From: Phoronis australis
Lineage: Eukaryota > Animalia > Phoronida
Direction of reading: 5' to 3'
DNA: 64,000 nucleotides
NCBI GenBank assembly: GCA_002633005.1
Contig: NMRA01000368.1
Coordinates: 236,396 to 300,395 of the forward strand
A model generated the notes under the pieces. It did not search any database, had not been told where the DNA came from, and saw only the letters and a list, made by a program, of their open reading frames with translations. Below are positions 3,001-49,479 of this stretch, piece by piece. Every line of letters begins with the position of its first letter. Positions within the stretch are counted from its first letter, which is position 1. A program made the position numbers and the translations under genes.

Positions 3001-3219
3001 GATAGTATTCCACCCCGAGTAGCAAAATCAACGATAAAAGAACGCTTTATGGCTTGGCGCCCTGTTATTTCTTTGCATTTTGTATACGGCACTACATCCT
3101 GATATCTACCATTTTTAACGGGTGTCTTACTTTCAGGCTCTTGCACTTGACAAGTGATGAAGCAATTGCCGGGTAATGTCAAAACATTAACCGGAACCAA
3201 AAGAACCAAAACTCTAACA

Positions 3220-3370
3220 ATGGCTGAATGCAGCCCCTCGCTGGATAACTGCAGAGTAGAAAATATAGATGAAACTCAAGAATCTAAATGCACATACACC
3301 GCTGGTGAAGAACCATCACCAGCGCCAACAAACAGTAGAAAGAAGGAGGAGGTGAATGAGGACGAAACAG
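3220..3370 (+). CDS. Coding exon 1 (MAECSPSLDN...EDET), acidic/disordered N-terminus
   Basis: ATG in acaATGg context; donor CAG|gtaacg at 3371; an acceptor ttactttcag ending at 3136 suggests an upstream non-coding exon. Confidence 0.7.
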
Positions 3371-6300
3371 GTAACGAATTGCAAGGCAGGTGATGTTATA
3401 CGAATGTTCCGTTCGTTGAGTTCCTTTACAAGAAACTGAAAATATCAATTCAATCTTGAGTACGATCATCGCCTATAAGGCGAACATATCACGTGTACAA
3501 AGTGTCATCTGACATCCCTGTCAACCTCCCTCATCCTTCTTACCTCCTTCTCACTCCCTTCTAAAACCGGGTTTTTTGGCTGTTTTGGAGATGAATAGGT
3601 CAAGAGTATTATTGTGGGCGTAAGTACATGTATGGACTGAGTAATGAGTAATTTCACTGGTTATCTGTGTGAATAGACATATGTTTGTATAAATAAATCT
3701 TTTTCAGTGAGGCGTGGAGATATGTTGGAAATGGTTTATCCCTGCACGGTTAGCAGAAGGTCATGGGTTCGAGTCCCGGTCAGGGGCAGAAATCTTTTCG
3801 GACTTACATTCATTAGGTCACGTCACGTGACCAAAAGATGGCGGGTTGAACGGGATAAACTATTTCCAACATATGCAGCCGATTTCATAAATGTGGATTA
3901 ACTTAAACCTGGTCTTCCTAAACCTGGTCTAATTTTAGACCTGACTTGCATTTCACCAACATGGTTTAAGAGTCTGAAAGCCTAGTTTTGCAGCTGGTTC
4001 AGTAAAACTGTTACTGTGTCAACCATATCACGTCTACTAGACAAAGTGTCATCTAATGTCAGAACAATTCTCGGACTCTTTACCGTCGGAGGTGTCCCCA
4101 CCTCCATCCCTCTCAACCTCCCTGCTCCTTCTTTGCTCCCCCTCTCTCCATTATGAAACCGGGTAATGTGGCTGTTTGAAAATGAGTAGGTCAACAGCAT
4201 TACGGATGGGTAAGTGTTGACTGAGTAATGAGTAATTTCACTGGTTATGTGTTGCTTTTTGAATTTGCTGGTTTGTCGGTGAAAACGTTTTTTCGATGTG
4301 AGAATCGTAAGTTAGGGCATATGTCTTGGGGGGAGGGGCAGCACCAGGATCACAAATGGGGTAGACGAGGAGATGATTTCACTGGCGGCTGTGGAAAGAT
4401 ATTGAAAATCACCAGGCATGGTATTTTGTGGACTCATTGTAAGCCTGGTACACCGATATGAAATGCCGACTTGGATATACATTTTTCATGACCCTTTATT
4501 TGTCAATCCAACATAATATTTCAGGAGAATCTGAACATGGATCGTATAGGCAAGGGCTTTCTGATGCAATCAATGGTCGAGTAATAAGTGGAGTGCATTC
4601 TCTCAGTATTTTTGACAACGTGGACAATCTCCAGATGGGGAACAACAATACTATGATTGAGTGTCAGGAGGAACCGGGAAATAGTGAGTACATGTGTTCA
4701 CAAGAAAGATTTGAATTTACAGGACACATAAGATATGACACAGTCCGAAACTTCATACAGAAAGGGTAAAAGGCAGGAATTTCTTGCTTTCATGCAACAC
4801 GAAAACGAAATATTTACTAAAAGTTATTTTAACCATCTTCTGATGGACTAATCAAAGTAAAAAATAAGGTGATTTTAGATAAAAGTCCAGCGCAATCAAT
4901 CAAATACTTTCTCGAATTCTACCAGTGAAGCCAACCCTAGACGTTCACCTGACTGAGGACAAAACCTTAATTCACAATGCACGCGGATATTTTCGTCCCT
5001 AATTCTTCCTGAAATGAATCCTGTTTGGTCTTCACTGATTAATTTTCCCATAACAGATTACTAAAAACGTTCAGCCACAGCCAATGATGTCATTTTTACG
5101 TTACATTTGGTAAACATACAATCTGTATTTTTAAATAATGATCACTTGTGCTTTGAAGATATAAGTAATCAGGTCCGTTTTCAATGTGCTTGATATTACT
5201 GAGCTTTAACTACACGTTAAACGCGAACGCGAACGTGGGTCGGAATTACTATGTCAAACCAATGACTTATACATTTCCGCGACAAGTCCTGTCACTCGTT
5301 TGGAAACAACGCGAAGACAACGAATCTCACGAAAGTGCAAAACGTGATTTTCAATTGTCCATTTATCATAAAAAGTCGTTTGATGCATGCAACTTTTTAA
5401 ACGTCTTTTGAAAAATTACCAATAGTGAAGTGTAGAGCATGATTGTGTCCCACACAGTTGGATGTCTGAAATATCATAGGAGGATCCAGAGGGTCAAGGA
5501 GATCCGAACTTCTTTTTACCCTTGATTTTGGAGAAATCAAATCTAAAAGTTTCAATCTTTTGACTTGAACCCCCTTTTCAAAAAATCTTTGATCCGACCC
5601 TCCCTTTAAAAATCCTGGATCCGCTCTTGAATATGACCTTTGTTTGGGGGCCCTTCTCCCATTGCGGATTTTTTCAGAAAATCCAAGGAAAACAGTGGCA
5701 ATAAGTGACACACATTTGCTGTCAAACACAGTAGCGTGTAGAGGTTTGATGATCTGTACTTAAATGCATGAGTCCTAGTACTAAGAAAGATGTTACATAA
5801 AGTTAAAGCTAAAGTAAACTAATCACTCCAAATTTCAAAAGGGATATGCGTAGTGACTGGAGGCTCCATCCCTGCCCGGGGCAGCAGCCCTGTCGCCCCC
5901 CTCCCCTCTTTCTGCCCTCCACTGCCAAAATATCTCTATCACGATAATATTCCAAGAAAGCAAATGAGATGAATGGCTTGATTAAACTGTAATGTTAGAG
6001 TTAAACACAAATCTTTTTTCTCAGTGCAATTTTGCTCAAAATCAGTGTTGGTATCACAAAAATGACAGCTTAAATTTTTTGATCATTTGGATGTTGATTG
6101 TTTTCACGGGGGACAGAACATAATGTTGTCACCATGGTCATATTTAGTTCCTCGAGCTGCCACCACTGTTTAACGCAGTTGCCGGTAACAGTCAACTTTA
6201 TGGATCCCTGAGGTCAGAATGACAGCATTATTCAATGGAAGTAACTGGTTCTGCTGAAATCTGGGACCAATCCGCGACCCAAAAAACCTACTAGTCAATG

Positions 6301-9300
6301 CCGTGCCACAGTGACATCACCACAGTGTCGCTCACACGGTGGCTATCATTAGGTAACCCTTCTCATGGGCGGCGCAGAACTGAAAAAAGTTGGGCTATAG
6401 CCCTCCAGTCCCTTTTTATGGGCCGCCCATGCTTTTTCAGCGGCGTTCGCGTTTGACGTGAAGCTAAAACTCACCAAAAGGAAACTCGACATTTTAGCAA
6501 ATAAAGAATCAAAGAAATTAATGACCGACGTTAGTCCAAGCAATTCAAACATTTGACTGAAAAACCTTCAGAACCTACATAACGTTGTTTTTCATTTTTT
6601 CTCAAACAGCGTGAATTCTCTTTGTATACACTATAAAAGACCTCCAATTTTCCTTTCCCGCACACACCTTATTACCTGAAGAAGAGTCTCTAAGGCAATA
6701 TCAGATACTTCTTACAACTCATCACCATTGGTTTCATGTCTCTAGAAAGTTAAGTGCGAAACTCTTGGTTGGCAAACCTTGGCTCTTTTGACCTCAGGTC
6801 ATAAGATATATCCTCCAACTGACTTTAGCTGCTGCAGGGAGCGTGCGTTGGCAACTGTTGTATCCCCTTCGCTTAAGTGTGGGTTTTGGTATTTGTACAT
6901 AATTAGTAGTGTACTCAGACGGTGGATATTCATCCAGGTGAATAAATAGATGCAAAAAAAATATATTTTACAACTTCTGTTGCCCAATTCTTAGTTCCAT
7001 TTCTGAGCAGAGAATGTTATTTGAAGTATTCACTAGAAAGCGAGAAATGAAAAGTTTACATATCAATCACGCCAAGCGATATTACGAGATCCTGACAGTA
7101 AAAGGCCCAGTTAGGTTTTCGTTCTTTGGGTAGGGAAACAAGGATAACTACAGGCTTATGTATACATATGAATGTAATTATATTTCAGATGAACTAAAAA
7201 AGGAGGACAGTAGCGGACAACCCTCCCATTGTACTACTAACACGCCTGGACGTGCGAATTCTTCTTGTGTCGCTGTTTTGCGTGACGTAAAGAACGCCCA
7301 GATAGGAAACTGTAACAAAATGATGGTTGCTGGTCAAATAAACAACGAAGACACAGAATACTTTAGGGCCCAACATGAACAAATTGGAAGTTCAAACCCA
7401 GACACGCCGTCTGGCCAGGTTTCATCAGACGGCAGCTCAGAGAGCACAATTAATGAAGGAATTAATAAAGGTAATGGCCCATGGACTGTATTTTGAAGGG
7501 TTCCAGCAAGGGCATTTCACAGTCTTATTATCGAAACACCACAGGTGTTACCTCTCAAGACCGACACTTTCAAGACATACACCTTCTTTAAATGAACAAT
7601 GTTGTCATCATATACAATTGTCAGAGCAATCTTATCCAACAGTTCATGTGACACTGGTGACATAGTCATTTGGTTTTATGTTGCAAGAGTGTAGTCACTT
7701 TTGTGCAAACTGATTTTGGCTAAAACTACTGCAAGGTCTTACAGTAGGCAGACAAGCGCCTTTGCTACATAGGGTATACCTTGTACAGAAAAGGAATCGT
7801 CTTTTGAGCAATGTCATGAACAATCAATGCAATGTTCTTCCAGAGTCACCATGGAATGTGGCTTACGTTATTTTATTATCCGTCCATTGATGCTCCGTTC
7901 CTCAAATTTCTTTGTCTTGTAAACTGGCATGTTATTCATGGTTCCATGTACTTACATCGTCTTCTGCCATCTGTAAGTTAACAAGTTAGTGGCTTATTGG
8001 TCCTGTAAAGTGTAAATTGGCCACGTTGGGTGTTGGCATATGAACAATGCGGATGGAGTGGCGTTATTGTGTGACCATAAGGAAGCCATGGTATTGCGTT
8101 TTAGGAACACTTAGACACCATAAATATCAGTGGATCTGTATTTGCCCATGTGGCTCACTTGCGCCCAAACAGACGTTCACAGAATATTTGAACGAAATTG
8201 TCCCCTTAACTTTGAGAACAACTTACTGAGTTAATGAACCCACCAAGTGGATCGCAAGTTTCACGAATCAAGTAAGGAGTAGTACGGGACATGGGCTGCA
8301 CATAATGGAGGGTTGGGGGGGGGGCTATGACCCCCTTTTATTTCAGTGCTGCGCCGCCCGCTGTCTACGCGGGGACTGGGGGGAGGGCATAACCCCAATT
8401 TTTCATTGATGCGCCGCCCTTGCTGGATACACGTGTAACTAAATGAAGTAGGAACTAAATGAAGTAGGCATCGTGTCCATAAGACCTTTGCTTTAATATC
8501 AATGATCACCGACAGAATGATAAACACAACAAATTTGCAAGTTTGCCTAAATACAACATCTTTTTGGTTTCAGGTGCCAGTGATGGTTGTTCTGCGGAGC
8601 CCGAACCAACACACGATATCAAATTAAATGAATTGGTGACAGAAGCGATCGATGGTAATTTATCAATGTACAAATGACACAGTTGACAATTACGGCGTAA
8701 ACACGTTGTAGCTTTAAAAATATGACACATAACTAATCATTATCGATAGAAATTTAAAGGTACAGGAAAAACCTATGTCACGTGGTAAATACTTTGCCGG
8801 TAGGCGTTTGAAATAACACAGTTTGACTGGAATGTAATTATGAGTTTATTGATCAAATGTTTAAATTTTCTCAAATAAATCGTAAAAATTCCCAAAGAAG
8901 GTTAATCTAATCAGTCTGTGATCACGTTTTCCCTTTCCCGTCGTTGTCATTGGATTCAACGTTACGTTTGTTGTCTGTGACGAGTTTCCTTTCTCTTGAT
9001 CAAGCCATCCATTGTTCCAAGTAGTCTTCATTTGACAGAATGCTTCGGAAAAAAACATAAAGTTCAGTCCGTCAAAGATTAGATATGTTAACATGAATTC
9101 AGTCCATCGAATTCTATATACGATGTATCCTATTGAAATTCGGTCCATCGAATTTCTGCTACAATGCATCGGATTGAAATTCAGTCCATCCAATTTCTAA
9201 CATTTGTGATATTTATGTAGCAATCCAGTGGCATCTCTTCAAGAAATATCTGCGATAACTCTATAGCTATCTGGTTGCCACTCTTCAAGAAATATACCTT

Positions 9301-12300
9301 CTTGAATAGCTAACAGAATATTCATACTGAACAGATTAAATGTGGCCGAGATAGATTAAAACATAAAACCCCAAAACTTCCTCCAAACGCTACTCGTAGT
9401 TAAAAACAATTCTCGGAACAAAATCGTATGATTCCAAATAAGAACCCATGCCGTCGCCAAACATGGTAACGGACAGCTACAGTTTTAAGTATTTTCTGAT
9501 CAATGATAACAAGATTATTGTTGTTGCATGAAATGGCTCGCCCCAAAGTTGACCAGTTCCCGTGAATTTAAAGTTACATAACTCTGCTAGCATAACATGA
9601 ACACATGGTCACAAATTTCGGTAAACAGCCAATACATTTAATTAATTACACATGCATTATTCGCATGCACATAATTAACTTTCTCATTCAAAACTTGCAT
9701 TTGAGTTTATTTGGGTAAAAATCCATGAGTGCGCATCAGTAGATATAAGTGCAGCACATGTATGAAATCTTTAATAACCGATACTGCACTCAAATCAAGA
9801 AAAATGTATGCATGTTCTCATTTCGTGATGACTGGCCAACTAATCATTTTGGTCATGGTGACAACCTGTACCTGAAGACACGTCTAAGGAAATAACGGAA
9901 ATATGATTAACGTGGAAACAAAGAAAAATGTCAAAGGTTCTGTTCTAGGGTAGCTCGTACTCTGGACGACACAATTATCTCCCTAAAAAATTATGTTTTT
10001 GCTTTTTCAGACGCTGAACATTTAGTTGACAGTAGCTCGAGATTGCTGCAGCACATTGACAGTGACTCGCAAGGTTCGTATGGAGTTGTCGTGCACACAT
10101 TATATCAATGCATAAAAATTTCTACTAACATTTTGGTGTGCAAACGCAGTTTTATTTGAAATAAAATTCGAGCACCATTTTGAACTGAAAGTAAAAAATA
10201 ATGACCAATTTGTTATTCTGAGCCGTCGGTGCGGGGAACATGGGCTGCAGGAGATACGGGTCTGAGAACAGTAAGACGACCGCCTTAAGCATCTAACAAG
10301 AATCTAATTTTTCAATACCTTAAAAAACAGAGCATGTGATGTATGAGCTACACTCTTCAAGGCTAACCTTCTAGGGAAAAGAGTTGGTTACAAGTATGTA
10401 ATGCAAATCCATATGGTTTTTGTTCCCAAATATCAATTTAAGCACATTAATGTGTCAATAAATAACATTCCTTTTATTGTTGATCAATCCTATAACATTT
10501 TCAAATTATTTGGTTGGGATGTTGCACAGAAATAGTGTCATATAGCTTCGTATAGATGTCTTTTTACATCTTCTACAAATCCATGTACTTATGAAGAACC
10601 AACAAACAAATGGTCGAAATCACACAACTTTAAAAGGGACTTACAACTAATCAAGTTACTGCTTAAGCTTGTGGGCTTCTGGTTAGAGTACGTATTGATG
10701 TGGTTAAGTTACATGTAGATAAATATTTCACTTGACATCAAATCATGTTTCAACGATTCAACGATCTTAAGCTCATTCTTGTCAATCACAGTTTTGGTAA
10801 TTCTCGACCAGTTGCTTGTATATCACGAAAAGTGGATGAGTCATGAAAGTTAAAACGTAAAGTTGGAAGTTCATTTCTTCCAGAAGACTACAAGTAGGCC
10901 TATAGAATTTGTTGCACCAGTGTTACAGTTGAAGGAATGAATCTACACATTATCTAATGCATAACGTTTTGGTGCGTCAGGTAACGATTCTCCTGCTAAA
11001 GAACACTCAAACGAAGGAAGGATGCGGACTGTGGAAAGCACGATAATAGAGCAACAAAATGCTGAGAACTCTCAGCTTCGGAAAGAAATTATTGTATTGT
11101 CACGTGGAAACTGGAAGGTGATTTTTTTAAAAAGTGGCTGCATCGAAATAACCTTTGAATGCACGAGTTTGGAAGATGTTGAAGACCTTAGAAAACAACT
11201 GTTGGATGGTCATTTAGATGGAAACCTCAAAAGAGCTTTCATGACCGAAGAAGTAACGAAATTGACCGAGGGTGTTGACTTTGACATCAGCATCGAGGTT
11301 GTCGATATACGTACAAGTAAGTGCAGTCACAACAGGATACTCGTGTAGTGCTTTAGATGGCAAATTCATGATGTAAATCGTTGGATAATTCAACTTTTCG
11401 CATTGCCATTCTCTGACAGGGCTTCATTTTCAGAAGTTTCAGAAATTGTACAATAAGCTTGTACTTGTCTGGCATGTACTGATAAAGCATTAGAACGGAA
11501 TAGAGAGTAAAGAAATCGTCTCTTGGTGTCTTAGCAGCTGTAACTCTGAGATAAAATCCTTCACGTGCTTATTGTAAACACTTCAGCACACAAGTTTGGA
11601 AATTTGTGTTCACTCTTCCGTGTTCTCCTTACTTTTGGTTTATTTAAAATAATCATGTTGCATTCCCTTTTTCAACAATATTACAATATGTCAACAAATT
11701 TTTGATGTGCCCAGTAATTTATTGCCACAGAGAGCGTGGTCTCAAAGTAAATGTTGCAAATTTCCCTGTTTTTGCCAAGTAGTGTCACCACGTGTGATGT
11801 GCTGGTGATTAACACTGGGGTGAGGGGTAAACACCAAATGTGTGAGACACTGTAGTAGCATAGAACCCCTGCTGTTAGGAAGCTCAATAAGAATCGCAAT
11901 TATGCAAATTGTGGTTGGAGTGTCCAGCTTGCAGCTTTCTTGAAATGTGAAAATTTGGTGTTCTGGCTCCAAGTATGCCACGTTTGCCTGAAACCGAGAA
12001 GGTCCGAGCTCTTGAACAAGTTGATGTTGATCTTCCCAGAATGTATTAGGCACCTCCTGACTCAGGAGTGGAATGCCATCACCCAGCTACGAATCACCAG
12101 GCTAGTAAACAGCATGCGAAGAAGATCTGTCGCTGTATTGACTGCGAGTAGATTGTCAACCCAATACTGGGAAGACCACTGTTATCTATCAGTCAGATCA
12201 TCACTATTGTCTATCAGTTGGTTGTTTAAAAAATAAAGTGATTAAGTGTTGCCTAATTGTCATTAGTTTTTAGTTCCATGGAACCAGCATTGAAATTGCT

Positions 12301-15300
12301 ATTGAAAAAGATGAATGCTTTAACTTGAATACACATTTAGCTCCAACTGAATTTGCAACATTCACTTTGAGACCAAGCCTTCTTTGGCCGGGCAGAAGAG
12401 TAACTAATCATAATAACCATTTATTGACGGAAAGTGGTATCATTGGATAGGAGAATGACTGGGGTTTCTATTGGTATGCAATATGATTTACTTAAAACAG
12501 AAATAATGAAAACACTGAAGAGTGAACACAAATTTCCGAACTTTTGGATATGTGTTTATTTTGTTGCCTATACACGTACGTGCTCGAAATTAACTCGGCT
12601 CATTGGTCATGTCATAAATTGTGCCCCACGATACAGTGAGACGAATATCTCACTTTATCTGACAAGCGTAAATTCTTGCAGCATGCAGGCGAGCTGGGTT
12701 AAGTGCTTAGCCTATTATAATTCATAATTGCATTTCCTGGCAACAACCAATCTCTCTCGCTGGAACTCCCTAACCGTGTGTACTACATTTATTTCGTTTA
12801 CTACCAACGTAAATAACAAGTCAGTCTGCATTTCGCTAGCGTTGAGTTGTAACCTGAGCTAAAGTTCACTCAAAGACGACAGGTCAGCCTGAGCAATCCT
12901 CAGCGCTTGTCCTAATTTCAGTACAATCAGCGTTGCTTTTTCGTAACGAGAGTCGTATAAAGGAGGTAGACATGCATATCGGTTTTTCATATTCTTCTAT
13001 AAAATGTGTAAAATTTATTGTTACAGGGTGTTAGATGTTTCGGAAATCCCGAGGAAACATGGAACAAGTTTTTGGGTCATCCATTGATCCAAAGAAAAAT
13101 ACCGTTTTTTTAATCCCTCTTCCAACAAATGCTGTCACGTGTTTTCAAAAACTTACCGTGGTCCCGTTCATGGCACCAATAATTACTTAAAGGTGTAAAT
13201 CTATTGTGTATGTATCTTACTGTACTTTTTGGATTTGCCAAATACGTAATATTCACTTCATAACCCTAGGAGGGCTTTGAAGTTCCTTTATATAAGATTT
13301 CAAATTGTACCATGATTTGGTTTGATCAATTCATGACAGAAAAAAATTCATCAATTGTATTGCCTCTACCGTCAAATAATGAATTGGGATCAATGCGTTC
13401 GAAGTTTTGCAAACATCACATTCTTCTTTTGGTCACCTCAGACTGAAAAGTATGCATGTAATGCTCCAGTGTTACCAGTGTGCATGGATAACTGTACAAT
13501 TGTTCATTCTGACATAGATTTTACGTGTAGTGGTGTGAAAATTGGCAATTTGTGGTTAAAACGTATGTGCTATCGTGTGGGTTGTGTAGTCAGATTCCGT
13601 TCAAATGAGCTGAACCGTTTTGTAGGGTAATGGAATTTTCAAATTTTATCAAAATGACCACTTTGCAATTTTTCGAATTAATTAAAATGTTCACGGCGAA
13701 ACGCAACTGAAGAATCAAAGCCTATGTTTATGAAAAAGTTTTTGAATTGTGAAAAAATTCTAAAATATAGTGTTAAGACAGAATTTTCTTCTACAAGTAA
13801 ATTTGTTTTAGACGGGCATAAAACAGTACTAGGATGGCAAGGGATCGTACAATTTTAAAGTAAATGAGAGCTGGCTGTATGAATTGCTTTGTGAGAATGA
13901 CTTTTTGCTGTGATGCCTTTGTACTGTTTCAGTTCACGTTGACGAAATTATGACCAAAGCAAAGGAAATAGAAGAAGGAATTTCGAGGTTGCATCAGAAA
14001 AAAGGCAATGTGATGGATCTATTGCCTAAAGCGGGAAAAATTGACTCCTGCACGGGTAAGTTCAATCTTTAGCCTGGTTATCGCTCCTCTCCAAAATTCA
14101 CAGTGGCTGTATTTCACTATTTGCTAATGATGTTCCATAATCTCACTATTGCAGTTTACCTGGAATTCACAGGAGGCTCAGTTTCTTCTCGCAGTGATTT
14201 TGTGTGTGTCCATGTATCCTCCCAGGACAATTTGTGACTCCACAGTAAAGATTTTTGAATCGATAGTATGAGTTGTTTACTCACCACACTGGTTCACAAA
14301 GGTTGCAAGAGATAAGAACTTAATTATACATGTACATATACATATATTCACTGCCTTGTACATCTAAGGTACAGTGGGGTGTTCGGTTGACTAGTACCAT
14401 CTCACCATAGCAGAGCTTAGAGAACTCGGATCCGGCGGTTAATCTGCCTCCTCTTGGTCATAGAAATGACTTGGCAAGGTAGACTGGCCCTCCCAATAAG
14501 TGCACAGGCTGCTCCCCAATCACAAAACATTTTTATACTTTTATATTTTACTCCATGTTGATGTCCTCTGGATAACAGCAACGCATTGATGAATTCACTC
14601 TACGCAAATCCTGTGCTGTTCGTTCTTATTAAATAAGCAGAAATGAAGCGAGACGTAACAGGCTAGTGATTTTCCAAATAAAGAAGTCAATCACTAAGGA
14701 ACCTGACTGTATTTTTGGCTTGAACGAAGCCGACTGCACGATGCAAGTTGGAGTCAAACTAACATTACGGTTGTGAACTATCAGCCTAGATGTAAAGTGT
14801 ATGACTTATATGCCAAGACAAAGGTCCCGGACACAAAAACAGCTGTTCCGTGCCCAAACTCAAAACAATTCCACCACGGGGGTTTGGTCTAGGACTACAC
14901 AGAGTTTCAGGACGATCGGCCACGTCGTCTCGGCGCCTTAGTGGGTACTTAAAGAATTTTGCTTACCGGGTATTAAATTCACAGGATCGCTTCTCATGGT
15001 GCCTTCAAACTTTTGTTTCCTATTTTGTATCAAGACTACTCTTAAAATTCCTTGTGAACCGCCCGGGCGTTCTGCTTATCACAGTTCTTTTCTCATGAAC
15101 ACGCCGGATTACCCGCTGCAATTGTTTTTTTGTGTACCACCATGAATCTGTTCTCTCTGTATCATTCGTACATGTAGTTGAAATTCTGAAAACTAGGGCA
15201 ACCTCCCTGGGTGTGCACGGTCGCATTCTTGCTGCCCCATATCCCACACGAATATGCATGGTGTCATTTGTCTCCGAGGGTTTTCGTTGTTATTAGTGTT

Positions 15301-18300
15301 TTTATTTTAAGTGGCAGTTATTATCACACGTGCGTAAATGTAGCCGCACCAGCAGTCGTGGTGGTGGTACTGATGCTTGTACCGTTGGTATTTTTAGATG
15401 ATCAACTTAAGCAGCTTTCGGAGAAAGAGGAGAAATTGAAGAGTAATTACAAGAAACTCACAGAAATCATCCAGAAGGAAGAAATAAAACAAAAACATGA
15501 AAGTATGTAGAAGCTATATTTGTTCCTTATACATGTATGTGTCCTTGGAGCATGTGTCAGTCTAAGAATCCTTCACAAAAAGAATTCATCCCCGAAGCTT
15601 GAAAAAACAAGCAGAATTTGAAATCATGTGACAATTACGTTTTTGTAAATGCATTTATGTCTCATTTCTGAAAAAATAGCATTGTTTTATCAAGCCATGG
15701 ATATGTTCGCATGCTCTTCAAACTGGAACAATCCGTCTCGAATGGGTGGTTAACCTGAAACTGGCGCCTCTTTTTTGAAATTCCATATAATATGCAAATC
15801 CGCAGTTGCGAGTCTGATGTCTGTTATCGATGCTTTAACATAAATTGTGGGTTAATTTTTGATAAGTTTCTACTAGATATGTGTTAAGAGTAATTGTGAA
15901 CGAGAACCGTTATGGAGGGACCCTGTTTTGTTTCCACTATATTGGCGATTTCTCGGTTAAGAGTTATATTGTTTGCAGGCCAATCTTCAGTTGATTACAG
16001 TTCCGAGAGTAACTCTAGGAAAGAAAATTTGCAGTTAATAGCACGAGTGAATCTTATTGAAAAGGGCGTTTTCGAGGAAGCAGGTTAGTATACGTTTCTT
16101 GTTAGAATGGAAATTTTCCCTTTTCAGATTGAAAAGTTACTTGCCGTATGACGCGTTTTGACACCCACGCGCCTTCTTGGGACAACTTTTTGACACATAG
16201 TTTTATCCAAAATAGTAATTTGGTACACGGTGTATTCAGTTACCAATCCTTTACACGGCGATCGTTATTCCATAACAGTGAAACTATGATACTGGTCAAT
16301 TTCAATAAAAGCAAGTGCTATCAACAGCAAATAATCAAGTTTGCATTTCAGAGCGACAACTTGAAAGGTTGGAGGCGAGGGAAGCAGAATTGGCAGCATC
16401 ATTCAGAGATCGTTCTGCGACTGGAGGATCGTCATCAGTATGTGAAATACTTCAGCAACTGGGAGATGTTTACAAAGAACGAGGTTTGCTGACTAAGTCC
16501 ACACAACACATCGCAACAGCTTCTGCATTATATAACGCGGCTTTCGTTGGTGAAAAGGAAGCTGATTCTGTTCGGAATCTTGAAATGCTGTTGAGAGAAA
16601 ACGAAACCGCTTTCTGCCGAATTTTATCCTTATCAGATGGTATGCTACCAGTTGAGTTCAGGTCAAAGGTTATTGACAGGTTAGAGACTCTTAGACTTGG
16701 CGTGACCTCTGAAAGTAAACAGTTACTGGACAACTTTTCGGAAAATCTTAAATTTGATGCACCACACGATGAAAGAACTGATATAGAAAAGGCGTTTGTG
16801 ATCGAGACCAGAAAGCTCTCTCAACGTGTAAGCGATGAAATAGCATCTTTGTGTGAAGAGTTCTTGTCAAAAAGTTGCGAAATACTGGGTCCACCACCTC
16901 ACGAATATGCTGTCATTGCCTTTGGGTCCTTGGCAAGGGGCGATATTACACCAAGTTCAAGTAGGCCTATTAAACTGGGTATTCTTTGTGAAAACGATTG
17001 CAGAGATGTCGAGTATTTTAAAAACATGATGAATCTTGTCCACGTATTTGGCCATAATGTGGGAGAAACAGATGTTAGTACTTTGAACATCAAATCACTG
17101 AACGACAATGTTACACTAGGTCGTGTAACAACTCCCGGATTCTCACTCGACAGTTCTTTTCCTCATTCGGACGCAACAGGGCAGGAAAGAAACACATTAA
17201 TTGCGACTCCCACCCAAATGACAGAGATACTTGACTATGGCTCATCGTCATCACGTGGTCATGAGTTCATTGATGTCGTTCAAATCCATGGTAGCGCTGG
17301 CGGCGATTCACTATTTAAGGAATTTGAGTACATGAAATCTAAAAAATCGGCAAGCAGAAAAGGAAATCTCTTGTCGGAAATTCAAAATTGCAAAGGAGAC
17401 ATGTTTGTCGTAAGCCTTTTTAAACCACTCTTTCGTCTGGAAAACAACAATGTGTGGGAAAGGCTTAATGAAATGAGATCCAAGGCATTTTTGTCAGACG
17501 AAGCCACGCACAATTTACAAGTGGCGTTATCGATAAGCGCGCTCTTCAGACTGCACGGACAGACTAGTGACGGGGAGCAGAATGAATGGCACACTGTAAG
17601 CCAGCTCTTATCAATTCTTGCGAGCGGTAACTCTGAACAAGGAGAAGCGCCGAAGTACAGCAAATACAACCCTGTCATTATCAGATACTGTTGTACGGCT
17701 TTGCCTTTTTTTGCCTTTTTGTGCAAACAGGGTTCTGATTTTGAGCTGGACACCGAAATAAAAAAACAGAAGTTCTGCGATGAGTTTCTATTAAAAATGG
17801 GTGGGGTACTCATATTGTCACAGGTCAGTGAAGACAAAGGTGAGCATAGTATTGAAGAGTATCTTAAATCCTTAAGTGTCGCAGGTGAGGCTAGCAGTGA
17901 TACTATGGAGGAGATAGCAACGGAATGGTTGAACCGAATAACTGGGACAGACCACAGCAATACCTCTTCCCAGGACTCGGCAGACGTTGGGTTTTCAAGT
18001 AGTTTTGACGATGCCGGGTGTCATATACTAGCGCCATGTTTGTACATTATGGGACAAATGTACAGTAAAATGGGTAAGCATCAATTGGCCTTGAATTATT
18101 ACCACAAATCACTGATTCTCTGGAAAAGACTTTATGGTGAACGCGATAGGCACGAAGTTGCTGCATGTTTCAATGGCATCGGATGTGCACACGTGAGTTT
18201 GGGCGATTACAACCAGGCCCTAAAGTTCCTTAAGGAATCCTTGGATGTGACGAAGAGAATCACTGGAAACAGAGATGACAGCAAAATTGCTCTATGCTTA

Positions 18301-19296
18301 AATAACATGGGGAACGTTTACTTGGACAGGGGAGATTACAAATCCGCTCTGGAATGTTACAATAACTCGCTGAGTATGATGAAACGACTTCCTGGAGATG
18401 AAAATCGAGCTGATATGGCGTCTTGCTTGAACAACATGGGTAACTTGTGTAAAACGTTGGGCCAGCACGATTTAGCCATGGAACACCTTGAGGAGTCGTT
18501 GAGGTTAATGCGAAGAAAGTACGGTGAAGTAGATCACCCGGAAGTTGCATCGGCATTGAACAATATTGCAAGTGTATACCTGGCTAAGGGCAAATACCAA
18601 GTTGCATTGGAATCTTTTAAAAAGGCTTTGGCAATGAGGAAGAGAATACTTGGAGATGTTGAAGATTCTGACATTGCATCATCTATGAATAACATAGGTG
18701 GTGCGTACTATGAAATGGGAAACTACAATGAAGCTTTAACATACTTAAAACAATCACTGAAAACTTTAAAGAAAATAATTGAAAAAAAAGATCACCCTGA
18801 CATCGCGCACTGTTTGAGTAACATAGGAAGTGTGTATAGTAAAACGAATCAATACGAAAAAGCTTTGGGATATTTCAAAGAATCATTGGCTATGTTGAGA
18901 AAGATCCATGGTGATGCTCATCCAGATGTTGCGTCATTTTTGAATAATATTGGGAATGTGTACAGTCGGATGGGGAATTACGGAAGCGCGCTGAAGAACT
19001 ACAAAGATGCACTGACGATCTGGCAGAAGGTCCATGGAGATAATTACCATCCTAACATGGTCACGTGCTTACAGAATATGTCGGCTATGTGTGCAGGACT
19101 CGACAAAGTTGATCTAGCCAAGCAGTATGCAAGAGACTCGCACTATGTTAGGAACAAACTTGAGTCTGGTGGACATAAGGTGGATGTTAATTCAAGACTA
19201 GCAAAGGGTAATTTGAATGCAGCTTCTTCCTCAAGTTCGTTTTTACCTTTCACAGTAAACCAAATAGGACATCCTCTAAGGTACTGGCGGTGTTAG
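3220..19296 (+). CDS. Predicted 9-exon gene (~1414 aa): 2x RHIM - TRADD-N-like - coiled coil - DUF294/GlnD-GlnE-like nucleotidyltransferase (degenerate active site) - 9 TPR. join(3220..3370,4525..4683,7189..7470,8574..8654,10011..10073,10981..11316,13933..14055,15398..15502,16352..19296)
   Basis: Each internal exon has a pyrimidine-rich AG acceptor and a GT donor; all junctions are phase 1 and the joined frame (4245 nt) has no internal stop. Domain calls are from motif recognition. Confidence 0.8.
3486..4250. repeat. Diverged direct repeat in intron 1 (copies ~3486-3670 and ~4024-4250) flanking a tRNA-like segment with a B-box (GGTTCGAGTCC, ~3766)
   Basis: Both copies share catatcacgt..caaagtgtcatct and gactgagtaatgagtaatttcactggttat. 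Confidence 0.7.
4525..4683 (+). CDS. Exon 2, contains RHIM 1 (SIFDNVDNLQMGNNNTMI)
   Basis: Acceptor aatatttcag, donor A|gtgagt; 159 nt, phase 1-1; the motif matches the RHIM pattern (I/V/L)Q(I/V/M)GxxNx(M/L). Confidence 0.8.
5476..5630. mobile_element. Short MITE-like element of the GGCGGATCCAG family
   Basis: ataggaggatccag at the left and ctggatccgctcttg at the right form imperfect inverted ends; related to the element at 31232. Confidence 0.5.
7189..7470 (+). CDS. Exon 3, contains RHIM 2 (VLRDVKNAQIGNCNKMMV)
   Basis: Acceptor tatatttcag, donor AAG|gtaatg; 282 nt, phase 1-1. Confidence 0.8.
8574..8654 (+). CDS. Exon 4, acidic linker (ASDGCSAEPEPTHDIKLNELVTEAID)
   Basis: Acceptor tttttggtttcag, donor ATG|gtaatt; 81 nt, phase 1-1, open frame. 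Confidence 0.65.
9060..9200. repeat. Degenerate ~40-bp tandem repeat (core ttcagtccatcgaatt)
   Basis: Four cores at ~9063, 9098, 9139 and 9180. Confidence 0.6.
10011..10073 (+). CDS. Exon 5, linker (AEHLVDSSSRLLQHIDSDSQ)
   Basis: Strong acceptor gtttttgctttttcag, donor AAG|gttcgt; 63 nt, phase 1-1. Confidence 0.65.
10981..11316 (+). CDS. Exon 6, TRADD-N-like domain
   Basis: GCIEITFECTSLEDVEDLRKQLLDGHLDGNLKRAFMTEEV...DFDISIEV fits the invertebrate TRADD-like N pattern (G[CS]IxxxxxCxxxxxLxxLxxxxxxGxLxxxLxxxxxT); donor A|gtaagt; 336 nt, phase 1-1. Confidence 0.75.
11575..12558 (+). mobile_element. Internally deleted Tc1/mariner transposon in intron 6
   Basis: Long imperfect TIRs (ggaaatttgtgttcactctt / aagagtgaacacaaatttcc); transposase N-terminus MPRLPETEKVRAL at 11975 lies directly before the Tc1 C-terminal motif LTQEWNAITQLRITRLVNSMRRRSVAVLTAS..STQY. 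Confidence 0.85.
13933..14055 (+). CDS. Exon 7, helical/coiled-coil segment (HVDEIMTKAKEIEEGISRLHQKKG...)
   Basis: Acceptor tgtactgtttcag, donor CGG|gtaagt; 123 nt, phase 1-1. Confidence 0.75.
15398..15502 (+). CDS. Exon 8, coiled coil (DQLKQLSEKEEKLKSNYKKLTEIIQKEEIKQKHE)
   Basis: Acceptor gtatttttag, donor AAA|gtatgt; 105 nt, phase 1-1; heptad-like charged sequence. Confidence 0.75.
16352..19296 (+). CDS. Terminal exon: TPR-like cap, DUF294-like nucleotidyltransferase and helical domain, 9 TPRs
   Basis: 993-codon ORF with acceptor tttgcatttcag at 16351; YAVIAFGSLARGDITP (polbeta-fold GS motif), HNVGET, PGFSLD and LIATP motifs; repeats of the type ASCLNNMGNxYxxxGxYxxALxxxxxSL...HPDV. Confidence 0.93.
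18031..19160 (+). repeat. Array of 9 TPR units (43-aa period, one 42-aa), kinesin-light-chain/TPR_12 type
   Basis: Directly visible in the translation, from APCLYIMGQMY to VTCLQNMSAM. Confidence 0.93.
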
Positions 19297-38088: not shown

Positions 38089-38722
38089 GTAAACCTCACT
38101 TCAATACAGTATTTTATTTATGTAGGACCTTATTCAAAAATCTATATATTTAGCAATATAACTACTAAACTATAGATTACTAGAGTTATGACTATATCAA
38201 GTGGGTCAAAAATTCAAAACTTTAGCTTTAATTTTTCAGAAAATATGTTTTGGTCAATGGATATCATGAGTTGTTAATTGACATGCAGCCACAGTATATC
38301 GCGTTTCTTTTTAAAAAGACATTGTGTGCGAAGACCAGACCGAGAGGCTAGTTGCAATGTCATGTATGTCATGGCCTGTTGCCGACACATATTGTCGAGT
38401 TGTTGGTGAGTTGAATACCACTGATGCATATGTACAGGTTATCTCTATTACGCAAGACAAATCTCTTAATCAGGTTTTCTTTTTTGTGACTTTTCAAATG
38501 ATTGAAATGTATGTTGAAATGCATCAAACTTGATCTTCCTTATACATCCACGCGTGTTTGCGTATGTGTGGGTGCTATGTGCTGTTATCCTCACCCGTTC
38601 AATAACTGCATCACAACTAAACCTAGTCTACATTTCATTTTAAGGAGCAACGAGGTACCTCAGGCTGTTCACAGCCAAGAAGCAAGTCCGCTTTTCAGCA
38701 GAATCTAGAGTGTACATGACTG

Positions 38723-41584
38723 GTGGTGGTGGTAGGAGTGATGACACTGGTGATGCTGGTGACAGTGATGGTGGTAACCTTCGATAATTGCTGTGGTAGT
38801 AATGCACCTATTAAGTATACTAACAAATCGTATGAAGGTAAATGCATTTGCATTTATGATGATGATGATGAGGATGGTAGTTCACTTACCCCTTTTCTCA
38901 GTAGTATTAGTAAAAGGGAAGCTTTATCTCAAATAGCTTATCCAGTAGTGTTACCCACACACCGAATCACAGTATGCAATATAAATCAATTTAAAGAAGT
39001 CCAAACATGCAAATTTATGCCACGACAAACTGATATTAACAGCAGTTTTGACCTTTTGAACAAATATCCTACAATGAATGAAGTTAAACTAAGATTTGGT
39101 ACCTTCCACAAACGAGATCTTCAATACTTTGGCAACTTACATAACTGTAAGGTCATTTCACGCAAAGTAAATGCAGAAAAGTTGTGGTTTAGGAATGCAT
39201 ACACTATTATCGAGCAGTCAAATAATATGAGGGCTCCAATAAACAGAAAGAACATTGAGACATTTCAACGCCAATCATTGCAGGGCAAAGACATAGACCA
39301 GGTCATGAACCACCCTGACTTAATTGTGGCAGATGCTGTGGACCTGCTTTGTAAATATTGGTTAAATAAAATTTGCAGCTTTTTTGAATTTGGATCAGGC
39401 TAACACTTTGTGTAGCCTTTTTAATTTCCATTACGATTTGGATGTATTTAAGACCAAAGTACATTACCAGTGTGGTAGTGACCTTTCCCAAAGTAAGCTT
39501 ATATTTGTTGTACATGTAGGAATCAACAGTAACAAATCTACCTTTCTAAGTGGTGAGAATGGGGAGGCTGGTAACCACTGGGCGTTACTTGTATATTCGT
39601 TTAGAAATCAAACCTTAATTTATGCAGACACAAATGGATGGGCAATACAAAATGTTCTCTCAGAGAACTTTAATGTTTTAGTCCAAAGTTTGGGTGGGTC
39701 AATTGAGTTAACTCATTATGTACACAGTCCTAATAATACACAAATGCGAAGGAAAAAATCACACATTTGTTTGCAGACTTGTTCTCATACATATCCTATC
39801 CAAACATGTGGAACAGTGTGCGGTGTGGCTGCAACTGTTGGGATGGCACTTGCTGTCTGTAATTTTGACATCTTCACTAATTTAGCTTATGGTCAAATGG
39901 TCTCCTCACTGCACTATCTCAGAAACATAAGCAGTCATCCTTCGTTTTTGAGATTGGTTTTGATAGACTGGTTGGTTTCCAAAAAAGTTGACCATGAACA
40001 AATTAGGGTAAATGATAATGAAGTAGAGGAGAATCATGGCAATCAAACTTCGGGTCAAAATTATTCTCTATAGTCCCATAGTAGTCTTATACTTGAGACG
40101 GTAATTGCACAAACACCAGAAACTGCCAGCTCTGACATGTCTAAAATGACACACAATTTCACTTATCGGCTTACTGAACTTGATAAGGAGACTAGACATT
40201 CAAAACCAAATGGTGAACATGAACATCCTGTCGATATGAATCATCTGGCAAACAACACTGCTGAACAGAAAAAGAGTTGCATTGCAAAAAACAAACTCAA
40301 GTTAACAAAAAAACAACTGGCACCAAGTAGCCATAGTATAGGAAATGATGAGTCTGTATTTCCTCAAGTTAATTCTGACAATGTCAACAGTGACAAATAA
40401 CAATAATCACAATAATACCATCACCAACAGCAGCCCTGCTCTTACTAAGGACACCATAGATTTTTCTAGTATATTACCATTTGTTAATGGAAGGTCAAAA
40501 ATTTACGGAGATGGTGTTTTTTACAACTCTGTTTAGTCTTAAGGAGTGGTTCCAAAATTCAAAAGAAGTTTAAAAAGTCAAAGGAATGTTTCCGGACTTT
40601 ATTAACAGTTGCGAGTGTGCTTATTGGATTCATAACAAGCAAGACCAAAACAGTGCAAAATTGGTAAATAGAATTGAAAATGTAGATTTTTCTAATATTT
40701 CTTCTTTCATTTCCAATAAGACAAAGATTTACAGAGATGGTAATTTTATGCGACTCTTTTTAGTTTTAAACAATGGTGCACACCTTTCCAAGAGATTTGC
40801 TGGCTCTAATGGTGATACATACAGGACAATACAAAATTTCATCAACAGTAACGACTGCATTGATTGGATTAATGAAAATCAGCAACAGGTGGAAATAAGA
40901 GATGACATTATTGATGCCAGTTTGGTATCAACTTTTATTGCTTCACCGCCGTCACTCTCTTATGATCCATAGTCACACTTACCACAGATACATCTAAAAT
41001 TGTTGCTAAACAATGGCAAAATTTGCAGTCGGTATTTAACTTGCACAAACCAAGGATTGGATGATTGCAGCAGTGTGCAAAAGATTCAGGACTATGTTAA
41101 CAGCAGACATTGCCAGTATTGGTTGGCTTCAGCTTCAGCAGAATTTCAAAAAAATAGGTCACTACAGGTTCGCGTTGGTTCAGATGCACTAAATTACATT
41201 GAAGAACTTCCATTTTCTGTGAATCAGGAATTAGTTATTTCAGAGCCACTCTACACGTCTTAGGAGTACCTCAAAGGGACGTCATGTGTGTCAGTAACCA
41301 AGTATCCTAACTGGGGGAAAACAAATAGACTGGACCAAAAATTTATTTATACAGGGAACTCTGTAAACAAGAACATTATCCATTGGAACTTAACATGCAC
41401 TTCAAGCACAAATGGATGTAGAAGCAGGTATGGTGAACTTCTTTGTAACATCAGACAGAACATAACAGATGATAAATGTCCCATCTGTCACGCTGATTTA
41501 AGCAGTAACAAAGTGTGTGGCAACTGCAATAGAAAACATTCTAGCCAGTGTAGTCCAGTCATTCTACGGATAACCCGGGAATAA
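38723..41584 (+). pseudogene. Long frameshifted coding region: Ulp1/SENP (clan CE)-type cysteine protease, 3x ~70-aa repeat and Cys-rich region; probably continues the SGNH gene and is transposon-borne
   Basis: Chain of same-strand ORFs; NHWALLVY (His, 39576), LIYADTNG (Asp) and PIQTCGTVCGV (Gln 39801, Cys 39819); CPIC...CGNC near 41480-41530. Confidence 0.7.
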
Positions 41585-41614: not shown

Positions 41615-44600
41615 TATCCTCTCACATCCCTTAGTGTGAGAAAAAAGTCTGCCGGAATCGGAGTGGCGGAAGTTGGTTTTTCAAGATGGCGGAAAAAATG
41701 GCCGCCATATTTGCAATGACCATTATAACTCGAGAGTGAAATGTGGTAGAGTAAAAATTCAAAAAGGTTTACATATCTTTTGTGGGTCAACAACTCCATT
41801 GAAAATAATTTTGCATGGCTGCGGTGACACCGTCCGCCATTTTCCAAGATGGCCGCCAAAACTGCTTCGAGTTGCACAATTGGCATCAACAAATTAGTGC
41901 GTCGTCTTCATTTAAACATAGCCTCATAGGTTTTCTGGGTCGAATAATCCATTGAGACTTATTGCATTTGGCTCTAATGATAACTTTCGCTATTTTCCAA
42001 GATGGCCACCAAATAGTTGCTTGGTGTAATAACTTCAGATTCTAGAAACACGCCACCTTCACAGATTTCATATCCTGAGTTTCATAGGTCAACATGTCCA
42101 TTAAAATTATTTTTTTTGTCGTGCTCTGATTTATACGACTACCATTTTCAAGATTGTTAAACAAATAATAACTTATTTGGGTGAAAAGCATCAGGTTCGC
42201 CTGGACTGAAGGCTCAATGTCTGGAAAATATGTGCTGTATCGAAAATAATTATCTGCAATTAATTTAGTAATCTACTATCCACACCAATTAACCGTCTGT
42301 GTCACCTCCAGTTAGCTGTAAATATTAGTGAATACAGCAGCAGTTGAGACATGAGAACGGTTTAACAAGGTCTGTTTAGCAAATTAAACAGTTTATAAGC
42401 GCTTGTTCAGCTTCCACTAGGCTTCTGTCTAATGATGTTACATGTGCGTTCGAAGCAGTAATTCTCAGTCTGTGATCAAAATCTATACACAATCAACAAG
42501 TATTTACACAACTAATGTTTTTCAACTGAGAATGAATTGCTGCAGCTTATATGACTGTATTCTCCGCATGCAACCGAGCACGGCAATCCTAACTTCTTGC
42601 GAGTATATCTCTTGGAACTGCGGTTGGTCTTGCACGAGCATCTTGCTACTTTCAACAGGTTCTCTGGTGCTGTTGGCTGGTCCATCGTCGTGGGAATGAA
42701 TTTTCCACTTGCCAGCATCCATCCCCAATACAGCGAGTCTAGGCTATTGCCACGGAAACTTGACCACTCTTTTTCTTGATAATATGTCCCGGCAGAATGG
42801 AATTTAGCTACTGAAGAAAGTTGGTGGTAATGACTATTTTGACTGTGGCTAGTCTGACACCTCATCCACAAATCGCTTGTATCGCAAGCCATCTAAATTT
42901 CCAGAGCCAGTACCGCCATAAAGCATAGACAAAACTCTTCCCAGCTTCAAATATGTCTTGCTTCAGCTTCATGGGTCTTGTGGGTACTCCAGCGTTTTCG
43001 CAGAATTCTCAATCACACAGTTTCTTGAATGGGAGAGCCTTTGCTAATACCGAACAGGCGTAATGTTTTATTGCAACCACCTATTGCATGCGCAAATGGC
43101 AAAACTGTGCAAGTTTCGGCACCAAGAGACAACTGTAGTTTCTTGATGTCACAGACTCTCCTCTTGAGCATTGGAAATTGTTGTGAAGTAGCATGGTAAC
43201 GCAAAAGAGCCAACAAGTCTGTCAGTGTATCGTCTGCAATAAGGGTAGTTGGACCTTGTGCTGCATTCTCTACTGATGCTTCTACAATTAAAACCTCTGT
43301 ATCACCTTGAACTTTTACCACTGTGAAACCAGCATTTCCTAGCAAACTTGACAAAAAGTGAATGAATCATTGTTTGTTTTTGCTCTTTGCCAAAAATGTT
43401 CCTTCTTTGACTTGATCACCATGTCACCATTGAAGTGAACTTCAGTTCCAACCACCCCACCCAGTCTTCGAAAATGGGAGTCACCTTTAGTTGATGGTCC
43501 ATCTCAGTAACCATCAAAAACAACAGTAGGCTGGGTGCTCTTGCTGAAGTAATCCACATAAGGTCTACCAAACGACTGAAACGTTGCACCTCTAGGCCAT
43601 GGAATACGGTGATGGAGAGAACCCCCTTCGATGCATGCATAACCGTGTTGTCTGGAAATTGAAATCCTCAGGTAGTCCCCCACTGGACTAGAGCGCATCA
43701 GCTAATATTGCTTTATTTGCACCTGTGGGAAGACCAGATGTATCAAAAAAGAGCCGGGGAACCAACACACAGCTCAAACTTCAAAAGGCACGATGAACTT
43801 TCACTGTTGTCTTTTGCAGTTGTCAGGATTTGCTGAAATAGCAGTCGTGGATCCACTTCTGCAAAATTACTATTACCAACATGAACTGATTGACTTGTCA
43901 TTGTCACAACCTTGTCTTTCTTTCTGAATGTGAAGTCTTTCACACTTGACTCCTCCATAGTCAAGTGAATCGCCTTCCCCACTTCTTTGGCATTTTTGGC
44001 ATTGACGCGTGTGCCTGAAGTCACACCAGTGGCTATGTTCTGTAGTGTTTCTCTTTAAAATGGGTTTCTGTTGCGGAGGAATTCAACAAGGCTGAGGATG
44101 TCTTTGCCATCCCACGACTGTCTAGCCTGGGTACATTCTTTATGATGCTGGCAGCCACGGTGCACACTGCGCATCTCCCATTTTGGAACCTTTATTAAAC
44201 CTCCTGTTGCTTTAATACTTTTCATGAGCGTTTGTTCAATTACAAGATCATATGACAAGCCTGCCCAGAATCTGTCACTTTGTCTTAGGGCTTGTAATGG
44301 CCGTAGACGTCTGGGCGGGTGCCTTTGAGTTGCTGCATCTGCTGCAAGTGTATGTATGCAGATTTTGCATAAGAGTTGTGACCATGCAGCTGCAAAATAA
44401 GGCAGCATTTCAAAAATTGCTTTTAGGCGGAACTCCCAATCTGACGTTATTTCTGCTCTTAAGAAATTCAAAGGATGTCAAGCACCTTCATATACTGTTG
44501 TCAAAGACTGGTGATTCGACTTTGCGAGGACAAGTCTGATTTATGTGCTTCGACTTTTATGGATACCTACAAGACACTCCGACGAGCATACATCACCGCG

Positions 44601-48657: not shown

Positions 48658-49479
48658 TTCATTGTCACTTTCTGTAACTGACTGTATCTGTGCTTCATTA
48701 CTTGTTGCTGGGCCTAGCTAGGTGGCCACTGTATTATCACTGTAGGATAACCGGGAAAACAGATTATGCATTGTCTGCATATACATGTACATGTACAGAT
48801 GGTTTACCAGGCGCACACCCAGGGGAGCTCGGGGGGCTCCAAGTGCAACCTAGCCTGACAGAAATACACTGTACCTATTATGCAGTGTGTTCTGATAGAG
48901 CGGCATGGAATGCAAACTTCAATCTCGCTGCAGAGGTTGCGCCGCGCATGCGTAGCATTTGTTTGTATTCGGTTGTTTTTGTGTTGGTTATTGCTATTGA
49001 ATTTACTGTCACTAAAATTTGTGCAACTCCGCCGCTTTTCAACTGAACTGCAAACTAGTCATATCATTTAGAAAGCAATTAATCAGTTCTTGATGGTGTA
49101 TGATTATAGCAGAAGCAAACGATAAAAAATTTACCTCATAAATAATCTTCCTTTCGCATATCTGACAGGTTTAATTTTTTAATTCTAAAAACCAAGTGTT
49201 ACAAAAGTGCTTATAATAACATGATGTAATAGTAACATAAGAAAGGAAATGAATCAGAGAGGTTATATAAAGGCAAATAATTGCATTGATTCAAAAGATT
49301 TTTACCCTATCAAGACAAAGGTTTTAGAATATGGATCGTTCACAGTTGCTGTGAAGAATTTAGTGAGGCACTCATTCAAAATTATACATCTTTATATAAT
49401 AATTGGACCTTCGGTGCCGTTGATACATTTTTTAATTAAAAAATCAGGATCCAGTGACATTTGGAAAAATAATTGCTAC

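Follow-up and report, generated by a model that had tools for sequence, protein, structure and literature searches.

In a window of 64,000 nucleotides from Phoronis australis (contig NMRA01000368.1; positions count from the first letter of the window), we analysed a gene at 3220-19296 on the plus strand. The gene is real, and its ten-exon model encodes 1449 amino acids (aa) with two RHIM-like motifs, a likely TRADD-N-like domain, a core with the predicted fold of GlnE/DrrA-type nucleotidyltransferases (NTases) and a C-terminal array of TPRs. The core has lost both acids of its catalytic motif and is most likely a pseudoenzyme. We tentatively read the protein as an immune or cell-death sensor.

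The original prediction had joined nine exons into a protein of 1414 aa. These nine exons gave exactly that length, all exon ends followed the GT-AG rule, all introns were in phase 1 and no internal stop was found. The long terminal frame was present as a stop-to-stop open reading frame of 995 codons (16309-19296, plus strand). One exon, however, had been missed. It was revealed by four RNA runs (X1-X4) that were chosen by their species label and aligned at 90% likeness, with 18-19% of each raw run read. A skip from 15491 to 15982 was observed in 8 reads of X1, 1 read of X2 and 1 contig of X4, and a skip from 16064 to 16349 in 4 reads of X1 and 5 reads of X2. The letter lengths between the skips (14 and 16) fit the junctions 15502/15979 and 16083/16352 exactly, indicating a symmetric exon of 105 nt at 15979-16083. 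With this exon the model has ten exons in a frame that is open throughout, and its nine introns are all GT-AG and in phase 1, with all 18 splice sites canonical. Since the additional exon was found independently and obeys the same phase rule, it supports the gene model. In every junction read the first mate was on the minus strand, which corresponds to plus-strand RNA in most stranded libraries. The start codon is at 3157 or 3220, because an in-frame ATG at 3157, 21 codons upstream of 3220, is preceded by an in-frame stop. A scan of the introns for further phase-1 exons gave 5 weak candidates, none of them supported, and Rfam gave 0 matches.

The reads were mostly 90-95% alike to the window, and only 7 of 1631 raw reads were at least 99% alike; most of the aligned reads were intronic repeats. 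Since the reads diverge from the window sequence, their source is a diverged allele or a close paralog. The sense-strand depth of exon 6 was 0.54 in X1 and 0.25 in X2. The joining of exons 1-8 was inferred, and the N-terminal exons are likely part of the same protein. The core and the TPR array are encoded in a single exon of 2.9 kb (16352-19296), and the N-terminus in small phase 1-1 exons. Such a split would be expected had shuffled modules been added to a core that arrived without introns, by transfer or retroposition. Exons 7-9 and the beginning of exon 10 are charged and likely helical.

To identify the core, its structure was predicted with 70 relatives (pLDDT 83, pTM 0.86). The model matched GlnE (3k7d, 1v4a) with a Z of 21.1 and DrrA (6yx5) with a Z of 20.6, whereas the next unrelated row reached 11.7. 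The root-mean-square deviation to GlnE and DrrA was 3.2-3.9 over 282-291 residues at an identity of 9-12%. Foldseek on the same model agreed (E 3.9e-5 to 2e-4). In Pfam, DUF294 was found in the core with an E of 0.0018, under the Pfam cut-off, and the fold confirms it; for 16354-18000, DUF294, AbiH and PUL were the sole Pfam matches at E≤10. A sequence profile of 19 short family members found DrrA in the PDB (E 0.00093) with a matching G-X11-D-x-D. The helical domain that Pfam calls DUF294_C was classed as HEPN-like by Anantharaman et al. (PMC3710099). By its predicted structure, the core is a GlnE/DrrA-type NTase with a C-terminal helical partner domain.

The core is followed by about nine TPRs, 8 counted by pattern and a ninth read from the translation. 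Pfam identified TPR_12 with an E of 6.5e-77 and TPR_10 in 8 stretches with an E of 6.9e-76, in agreement with the TPR array originally proposed. The protein belongs to the NTase-HEPN-TPR family, since the helical cap, the DUF294-like NTase, the helical domain and the TPR array are all present and homologous in sequence; a family profile built without the query scored the window core at 165 bits (E 6.6e-52). Membership in the NLR or STAND proteins was rejected, as the central region was assigned to the GlnE/DrrA fold and neither NACHT nor NB-ARC was found. The NLR-like feature of an N-terminal signalling module with a C-terminal repeat array is present, provided the N-terminal exons are linked as inferred. 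An NTase at the centre, where NLRs have NACHT or NB-ARC, was thus correctly foreseen; the role of a nucleotide switch gained no support.

The family motif is G-S-x5-T-P-Y-S-D-x-E, which equals the G-X11-D-x-D motif that is essential for AMPylation by DrrA. In DrrA both acids bind metal and act as base, and mutating either one abolishes AMPylation (PMC8097203). The two acids (D/E-x-D/E) were kept in 158 of 163 aligned domains, which came from 147 of 150 matches listed. The window protein has Ser and Lys at the two acidic positions of D-x-E and a two-residue insertion. It also lacks a conserved Asp and a K-x-P-x-G loop that are both near-invariant in the family. What the window protein retains is the fold, the GS..TP loop and, further downstream, two acids that are conserved in the family (E and D there; aa 707 and 735). 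Because both acids of D-x-E are lost, we read the window core as a pseudoenzyme, which, judged from its sequence, it most likely is. The original prediction had recognised a GlnD/GlnE/DUF294-type NTase, and the fold bears this out; the loss of the catalytic acids had escaped it. Five other domains, on separate branches, lack one or both acids: P0045 from Ptychodera, P0116 from amphioxus, P0142 from a Bacteroidota metagenome-assembled genome (MAG), P0122 and P0135. P0116 consists of HEPN_DZIP3, core and TPR and has D-x-N instead of D-x-E. Several Branchiostoma species or hybrids contribute to its 90% cluster of 7 members, and P0116 is likely a conserved pseudoenzyme, in contrast to the fast-changing rest of the family.

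The TRADD-N-like exon of the original prediction, exon 6, was supported by three tests of moderate strength. Against Pfam TRADD-like_N (PF20694) it scored an E of 0.082, under the Pfam cut-off. In Atlas, the top three matches (0.91-0.94) were all TRADD-like_N, with 214 of 256 features for the 0.94 match. Against a profile of four relatives' domains it reached 30.7 bits, compared with 10.4 for the best of 2000 shuffles; without the seed that had been picked for its likeness to exon 6, the score was 19.6 bits against 8.5 for the best shuffle. A BLASTP comparison with the relative P0024 gave only an E of 0.11. A word-based homolog search with exon 6 was blank, and the same type of search also missed the core that full HMMER matched. 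We consider exon 6 likely to be TRADD-N-like.

Exons 2 and 3 each contain one RHIM-like motif in a polar region of low hydrophobicity. The pattern, which we take to represent the RHIM core, was a core tetrad followed by x-x-N-x-hydrophobic, and it was picked after the motifs had been seen. Two matches were found in aa 1-245, whereas of 200,000 shuffles 132 had at least one match and none had two. Among 127,996 six-frame positions of the window, 4 matches occurred, and 2 of these were the motifs of exons 2 and 3. Motif 1 scored 17.4 bits against a profile of three relatives' motifs, which was reached by 0 of 5000 shuffles (best shuffle 17.0). By these counts the two RHIM-like motifs exceed chance; amyloid formation is putative.

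A full HMMER search with 16354-18000 gave 578 clusters at E≤0.001; the family counts in this text are based on 147 core-bearing proteins among 150 matches listed of these clusters. When 30 matches were looked up, the top ten were all from Branchiostoma. The others included two more from Branchiostoma, two from Ptychodera, one each from Saccoglossus, Owenia and a Bacteroidota MAG, and a domain-named JGI protein. The core family is expanded in amphioxus, and hemichordates and an annelid have it too. Neochlamydia joined the list through a profile search (P0181, P0182); its family members have an F-box at the N-terminus. A GTDB scan with P0181 went through 132 candidate stretches and gave 2 loci, which matched in the TPR part alone and therefore say nothing about the bacterial range. 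A word-based homolog search for the core was blank, which means little since full HMMER matched. The best identity of the window core to any relative was 33%.

TPRs followed the core in 97 of the 147 proteins, and in 93 of 111 among those of at least 800 aa. The N-terminal extension was longer than 150 aa in 59 proteins and at most 150 aa in 88. On the constant core the N-termini varied, with CARD in P0032, CARD and FN3 in P0038, IRF in P0044 and HEPN_DZIP3 in P0116. The NLR-like order of effector, central module and repeats that had been proposed for the window gene is borne out by the relatives, which swap N-termini on one constant core. In P0044 the core is preceded by a RHIM-like motif, a stretch resembling TRADD-N and the DNA-binding domain of IRF (E 1.7e-18). 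For P0038, Pfam at E≤1 gave no match to the TRADD-N-like stretch. Two or three cores were present in 13 of the 147 proteins, e.g. P0001-P0005, P0014 and P0019, and gene models that fuse tandem copies may account for some of these.

The protein P0024 (1962 aa, nested among amphioxus proteins in the tree) contains two RHIM-like motifs (Pfam RHIM E 0.03), TRADD-like_N (E 0.0014), the core and a TPR array in the same order as the window gene. This shared order supports the linkage of the exons and the RHIM reading. P0024 differs in that it keeps D-L-E, has a longer linker and shares only about 30% identity in the core. Since it is distant from the window protein in the tree, the shared layout may have arisen twice.

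Amyloid nucleation through RHIM or similar motifs has precedents in RIPK1/RIPK3, ZBP1 and the fungal NWD2/HET-s. Based on its anatomy, the window gene may encode a cytosolic immune or cell-death sensor, in which the dead enzyme-like core would serve as a scaffold and the RHIM-like motifs would carry the signal; we give this slightly less than an even chance. A microbial or damage ligand would bind to the TPR array or to the cleft of the dead active site, whereupon the protein would cluster via TRADD-N and the charged helical segment. In the disordered tail, the pair of RHIM-like motifs would then nucleate amyloid with a downstream RHIM protein, and the output would be death or NF-kB-type signalling. 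Relatives with an intact motif could add protein AMPylation as an output, which the window copy would not. These steps are derived from the anatomy and from known RHIM systems (PMC4262963). The constant core with swapped immune adaptors in the relatives counts for the sensor and scaffold function, as does the intact ten-exon frame together with a spliced close homolog that is read on one strand.

Several results weigh against this interpretation. The introns of the original prediction were to be confirmed by RNA reads; the two junctions around exon 9 were seen, whereas among exons 1-8 no junction was found in the reads covered. Exon 1 had no read depth (bin 3001-3601), and neither had 18026-18626 inside exon 10. 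Motif 2 was weak, with 4.6 bits against the profile of the three relatives' motifs, a score reached by 40 of 5000 shuffles. Neither RHIM-like motif was matched in Pfam (RHIM PF12721) or the PDB at E≤10, where the HMMER filters discard weak matches of a 22-position model such as Pfam RHIM, and Atlas gave no usable match for exon 2. The tandem RHIM originally predicted thus stands as two RHIM-like motifs without a database call. Modelled from its sequence alone, exon 6 gave a poor structure (pLDDT 54), which reached a Z of at most 4.5 and matched no TRADD-N structure. The window core is on a long branch, with 1.78 against a median of 0.28 (FastTree, 172 rows), and 15 of 21 codons differing from the reads change the residue (best 40 of 241 difference rows). 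The non-synonymous excess and the long branch are equally compatible with relaxed and with diversifying selection. In the literature covered, none of the family members had a reported ligand, partner or function.

It is unlikely, though worth considering, that the protein acts as a decoy or brake, with the dead core binding a substrate or pairing with active paralogs and thereby damping or guarding their activity. It would then regulate as a pseudoenzyme, in the way cFLIP does for caspases, or stand in for the target of a bacterial effector as an integrated decoy, and the RHIM-like motifs would inhibit or relay instead of starting the signal. The recurrent acid loss on the separate branches of P0045, P0116, P0142, P0122 and P0135, the retained fold and GS..TP loop of the window core and the proteins with several cores, which suggest that cores pair, all fit this possibility. 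However, no active paralog lies within the window, where the family profile finds one core, and binding to paralogs or substrate is putative. A serious rival, which we likewise judge improbable, is that the gene is a decaying paralog of a birth-and-death family, whose enzyme died recently and whose remainder is drifting and not yet broken. This would explain the long branch, the additional loss of the K-x-P-x-G loop and the conserved Asp, the predominance of non-synonymous differences, the few reads of at least 99% likeness (most reads being intronic repeats) and a frameshifted TPR relic at 49479-49818. The core has long diverged, as its best identity of 33% indicates, and yet there is no stop in 1449 codons and every splice site is canonical. 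In addition, both observed junctions are preserved in the diverged homolog, and 0 of 22 listed coding differences give a stop.

The missing upstream junctions could also mean that exons 1-7 are on another transcript and that the real gene comprises coiled-coil, core and TPR, like the relatives with short N-termini. The upstream depth far below that of exon 10, several acceptors that are only average by a simple score and the 88 relatives with N-termini of at most 150 aa are consistent with this. We find it quite unlikely, because all exons are phase 1-1, share a strand and have no stop between them, exon 8 opens with an acceptor instead of an ATG, P0024 shows the order RHIM-like, RHIM-like, TRADD-N, core and TPR as well, and the bins of exons 5 and 6, at low depth, have the same mate direction as exon 10. 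Least probable is a core that is still active through other acidic residues, which would make the protein a sensor-gated AMPylase. The GS motif, the acids at aa 707 and 735 and the intact fold would allow it; both acids that DrrA needs for metal binding and as base (PMC8097203) are absent, and the catalytic strand contains the two-residue insertion and the Lys. An active enzyme was rejected as the lead reading since the G-X11-[DE]-x-[DE] motif is non-acidic at both positions. The sensor with a dead core as scaffold is the reading we prefer. The features of the gene are listed in Table 1.

Table 1. Positions of exons and protein features of the gene in the window
Feature	Position	Strand	Remarks
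Exon 1 (coding part)	3220..3370	+	Acidic low-complexity N-terminus; Predicted; GT donor, open frame; no read depth in its bin
Exon 2	4525..4683	+	Phase 1-1; RHIM-like motif 1, core 4629-4655, aa 86-94
Exon 3	7189..7470	+	Phase 1-1; RHIM-like motif 2, core 7296-7322, aa 140-148
Exon 4	8574..8654	+	Phase 1-1, linker; open frame; strong acceptor, top 1% of AG sites (simple score)
Exon 5	10011..10073	+	Phase 1-1, linker; strong acceptor, open frame
Exon 6	10981..11316	+	Phase 1-1; TRADD-N-like domain ~11043-11316
Exon 7	13933..14055	+	Phase 1-1; charged, E/K-rich; likely coiled-coil (by eye)
Exon 8	15398..15502	+	Phase 1-1; charged, likely coiled-coil; reads spliced to exon 9
Exon 9	15979..16083	+	Phase 1-1; junction reads at both sides; open frame
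Exon 10	16352..19296	+	Intron-free: helical cap, NTase, helical partner domain, TPR array, stop
TPR-like helical cap before NTase	16357..16632	+	Common to the family; model residues 2-93 match TPR folds, Z ~10-11
GlnE/DrrA-type NTase fold with C-terminal helical (DUF294_C/HEPN-like) domain	16636..17733	+	Predicted structure
Degenerate catalytic motif	16924..16974	+	G-S start kept; both acidic positions non-acidic (aa 672, 676 of the 1449-aa model)
TPR array, about nine 42-43-residue repeats, kinesin-light-chain type	18028..19130	+	Pfam and pattern

Other elements were observed in the window. The relic at 49479-49818 (plus strand) contains two to three TPRs like those of the gene, with no NTase core nearby, and has 69% DNA identity over 299 bases to 18110-18398; it is a dead paralog fragment. 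Within intron 1, a direct repeat of about 150 bases (3513-3668 and 4105-4252) is 78% alike. An intronic repeat at 3696-3990 has many reads on both strands and loose ends that resemble tRNA A and B boxes; by eye it is probably a tRNA-derived short interspersed nuclear element. At 38720-41584 (plus strand), a run of long frames is interrupted by stops and shifts, and one part looks like an Ulp1-type protease by eye. This is likely a decayed DNA transposon; 4 frames examined had no Pfam match at E≤0.01. The broken frames at 42512-44477 (minus strand) have a Cys-rich motif at the end and are likely a decayed transposase, with no Pfam match for 4 frames examined.

It is possible, if doubtful, that a DrrA/GlnE-type AMPylase core, shared with intracellular bacteria, underlies a large class of receptors in marine invertebrates. 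Such a class would follow the NLR grammar without a STAND ATPase and would include active sensor-AMPylases as well as dead-core sensors, the window protein among them, that work through RHIM amyloid or as decoys for bacterial AMPylating effectors. If true, the amyloid-signalling receptors would gain a non-STAND scaffold, and the family, with its hundreds of members, would hint at protein AMPylation in animals by a third type of enzyme next to Fic and SelO. Since a dead copy (the window gene) and an intact copy of the same layout (P0024) exist, the need of catalysis for signalling is directly testable. The single window gene matters less than the family, as its layout is already in databases and its function is putative.

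The original prediction held that no animal receptor of this architecture had been described. This claim falls with the layout of P0024 and with two published catalogues. Kaur et al. 2021 (PMC8195603) described expansions of TRADD-N in invertebrates with varied immune partners, and the source data of their Figure 4 contain three amphioxus rows with TRADD-N and NTase, two of them with HEPN and TPRs. These two, XP_002605446.1 and XP_019613615.1, are CARD+FN3+TRADDN-DEDD2+NTase+HEPN+TPRs, in an order like that of the window gene, and the third, XP_002600337.1, is TIR+TRADDN-DEDD2+coiled-coil+NTase. From the matching length and domains, P0038 (1299 aa, CARD and FN3) appears to be XP_002605446.1. 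In the window gene, RHIM-like motifs replace CARD or TIR, and the catalytic acids are lost. In the accessible part of that paper the rows with adaptor, TRADD-N and NTase are table entries that are not discussed as a system, and 'RHIM' has 0 occurrences in its main text and the searched part of one supplement file. The NEX2 proteins of Neochlamydia (Domman et al. 2014, PMC4209131; 50 proteins) consist of an F-box, sometimes OTU, with DUF294 and TPR. They share with the window gene the core and TPR tail, as seen in P0181 and P0182, and a swappable N-terminal module. Unlike the window gene, they are bacterial, presumably host-directed, and have a ubiquitin-system N-terminus and intact acids.

A literature search, with subscription journals mostly outside its range, found no paper in which the animal family is treated as a system of receptors or enzymes, and a description may exist; the accessible parts of PMC13350694 and PMC3482391 contained nothing on the NTase-HEPN-TPR family. 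Khater and Mohanty 2015 (PMC4454073) described DrrA-like proteins as very rare and confined to Legionella. The AMPylase domain of DrrA/SidM and GlnE (GS-ATase) share with the window core the fold of NTase and helical domain, whereas the window protein has no guanine nucleotide exchange factor or lipid-binding domains and lacks the catalytic acids. In amphioxus, RHIMs occupy the usual position of CARD-like domains, often in two or three copies in unfolded regions (PMC4262963). NWD2/HET-s, the amphioxus RHIM-NACHT proteins (PMC4262963) and ZBP1 resemble the window gene in the succession of amyloid motif, central domain and repeats, and in tandem RHIMs in a disordered region. Unlike the amyloid NLRs, the window gene has a polymerase-beta-type NTase at its centre instead of a STAND P-loop ATPase, and an oligomerisation switch is putative. 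In conclusion, the core family and similar layouts are already catalogued, and new is the RHIM-like pair with TRADD-N on a dead core.

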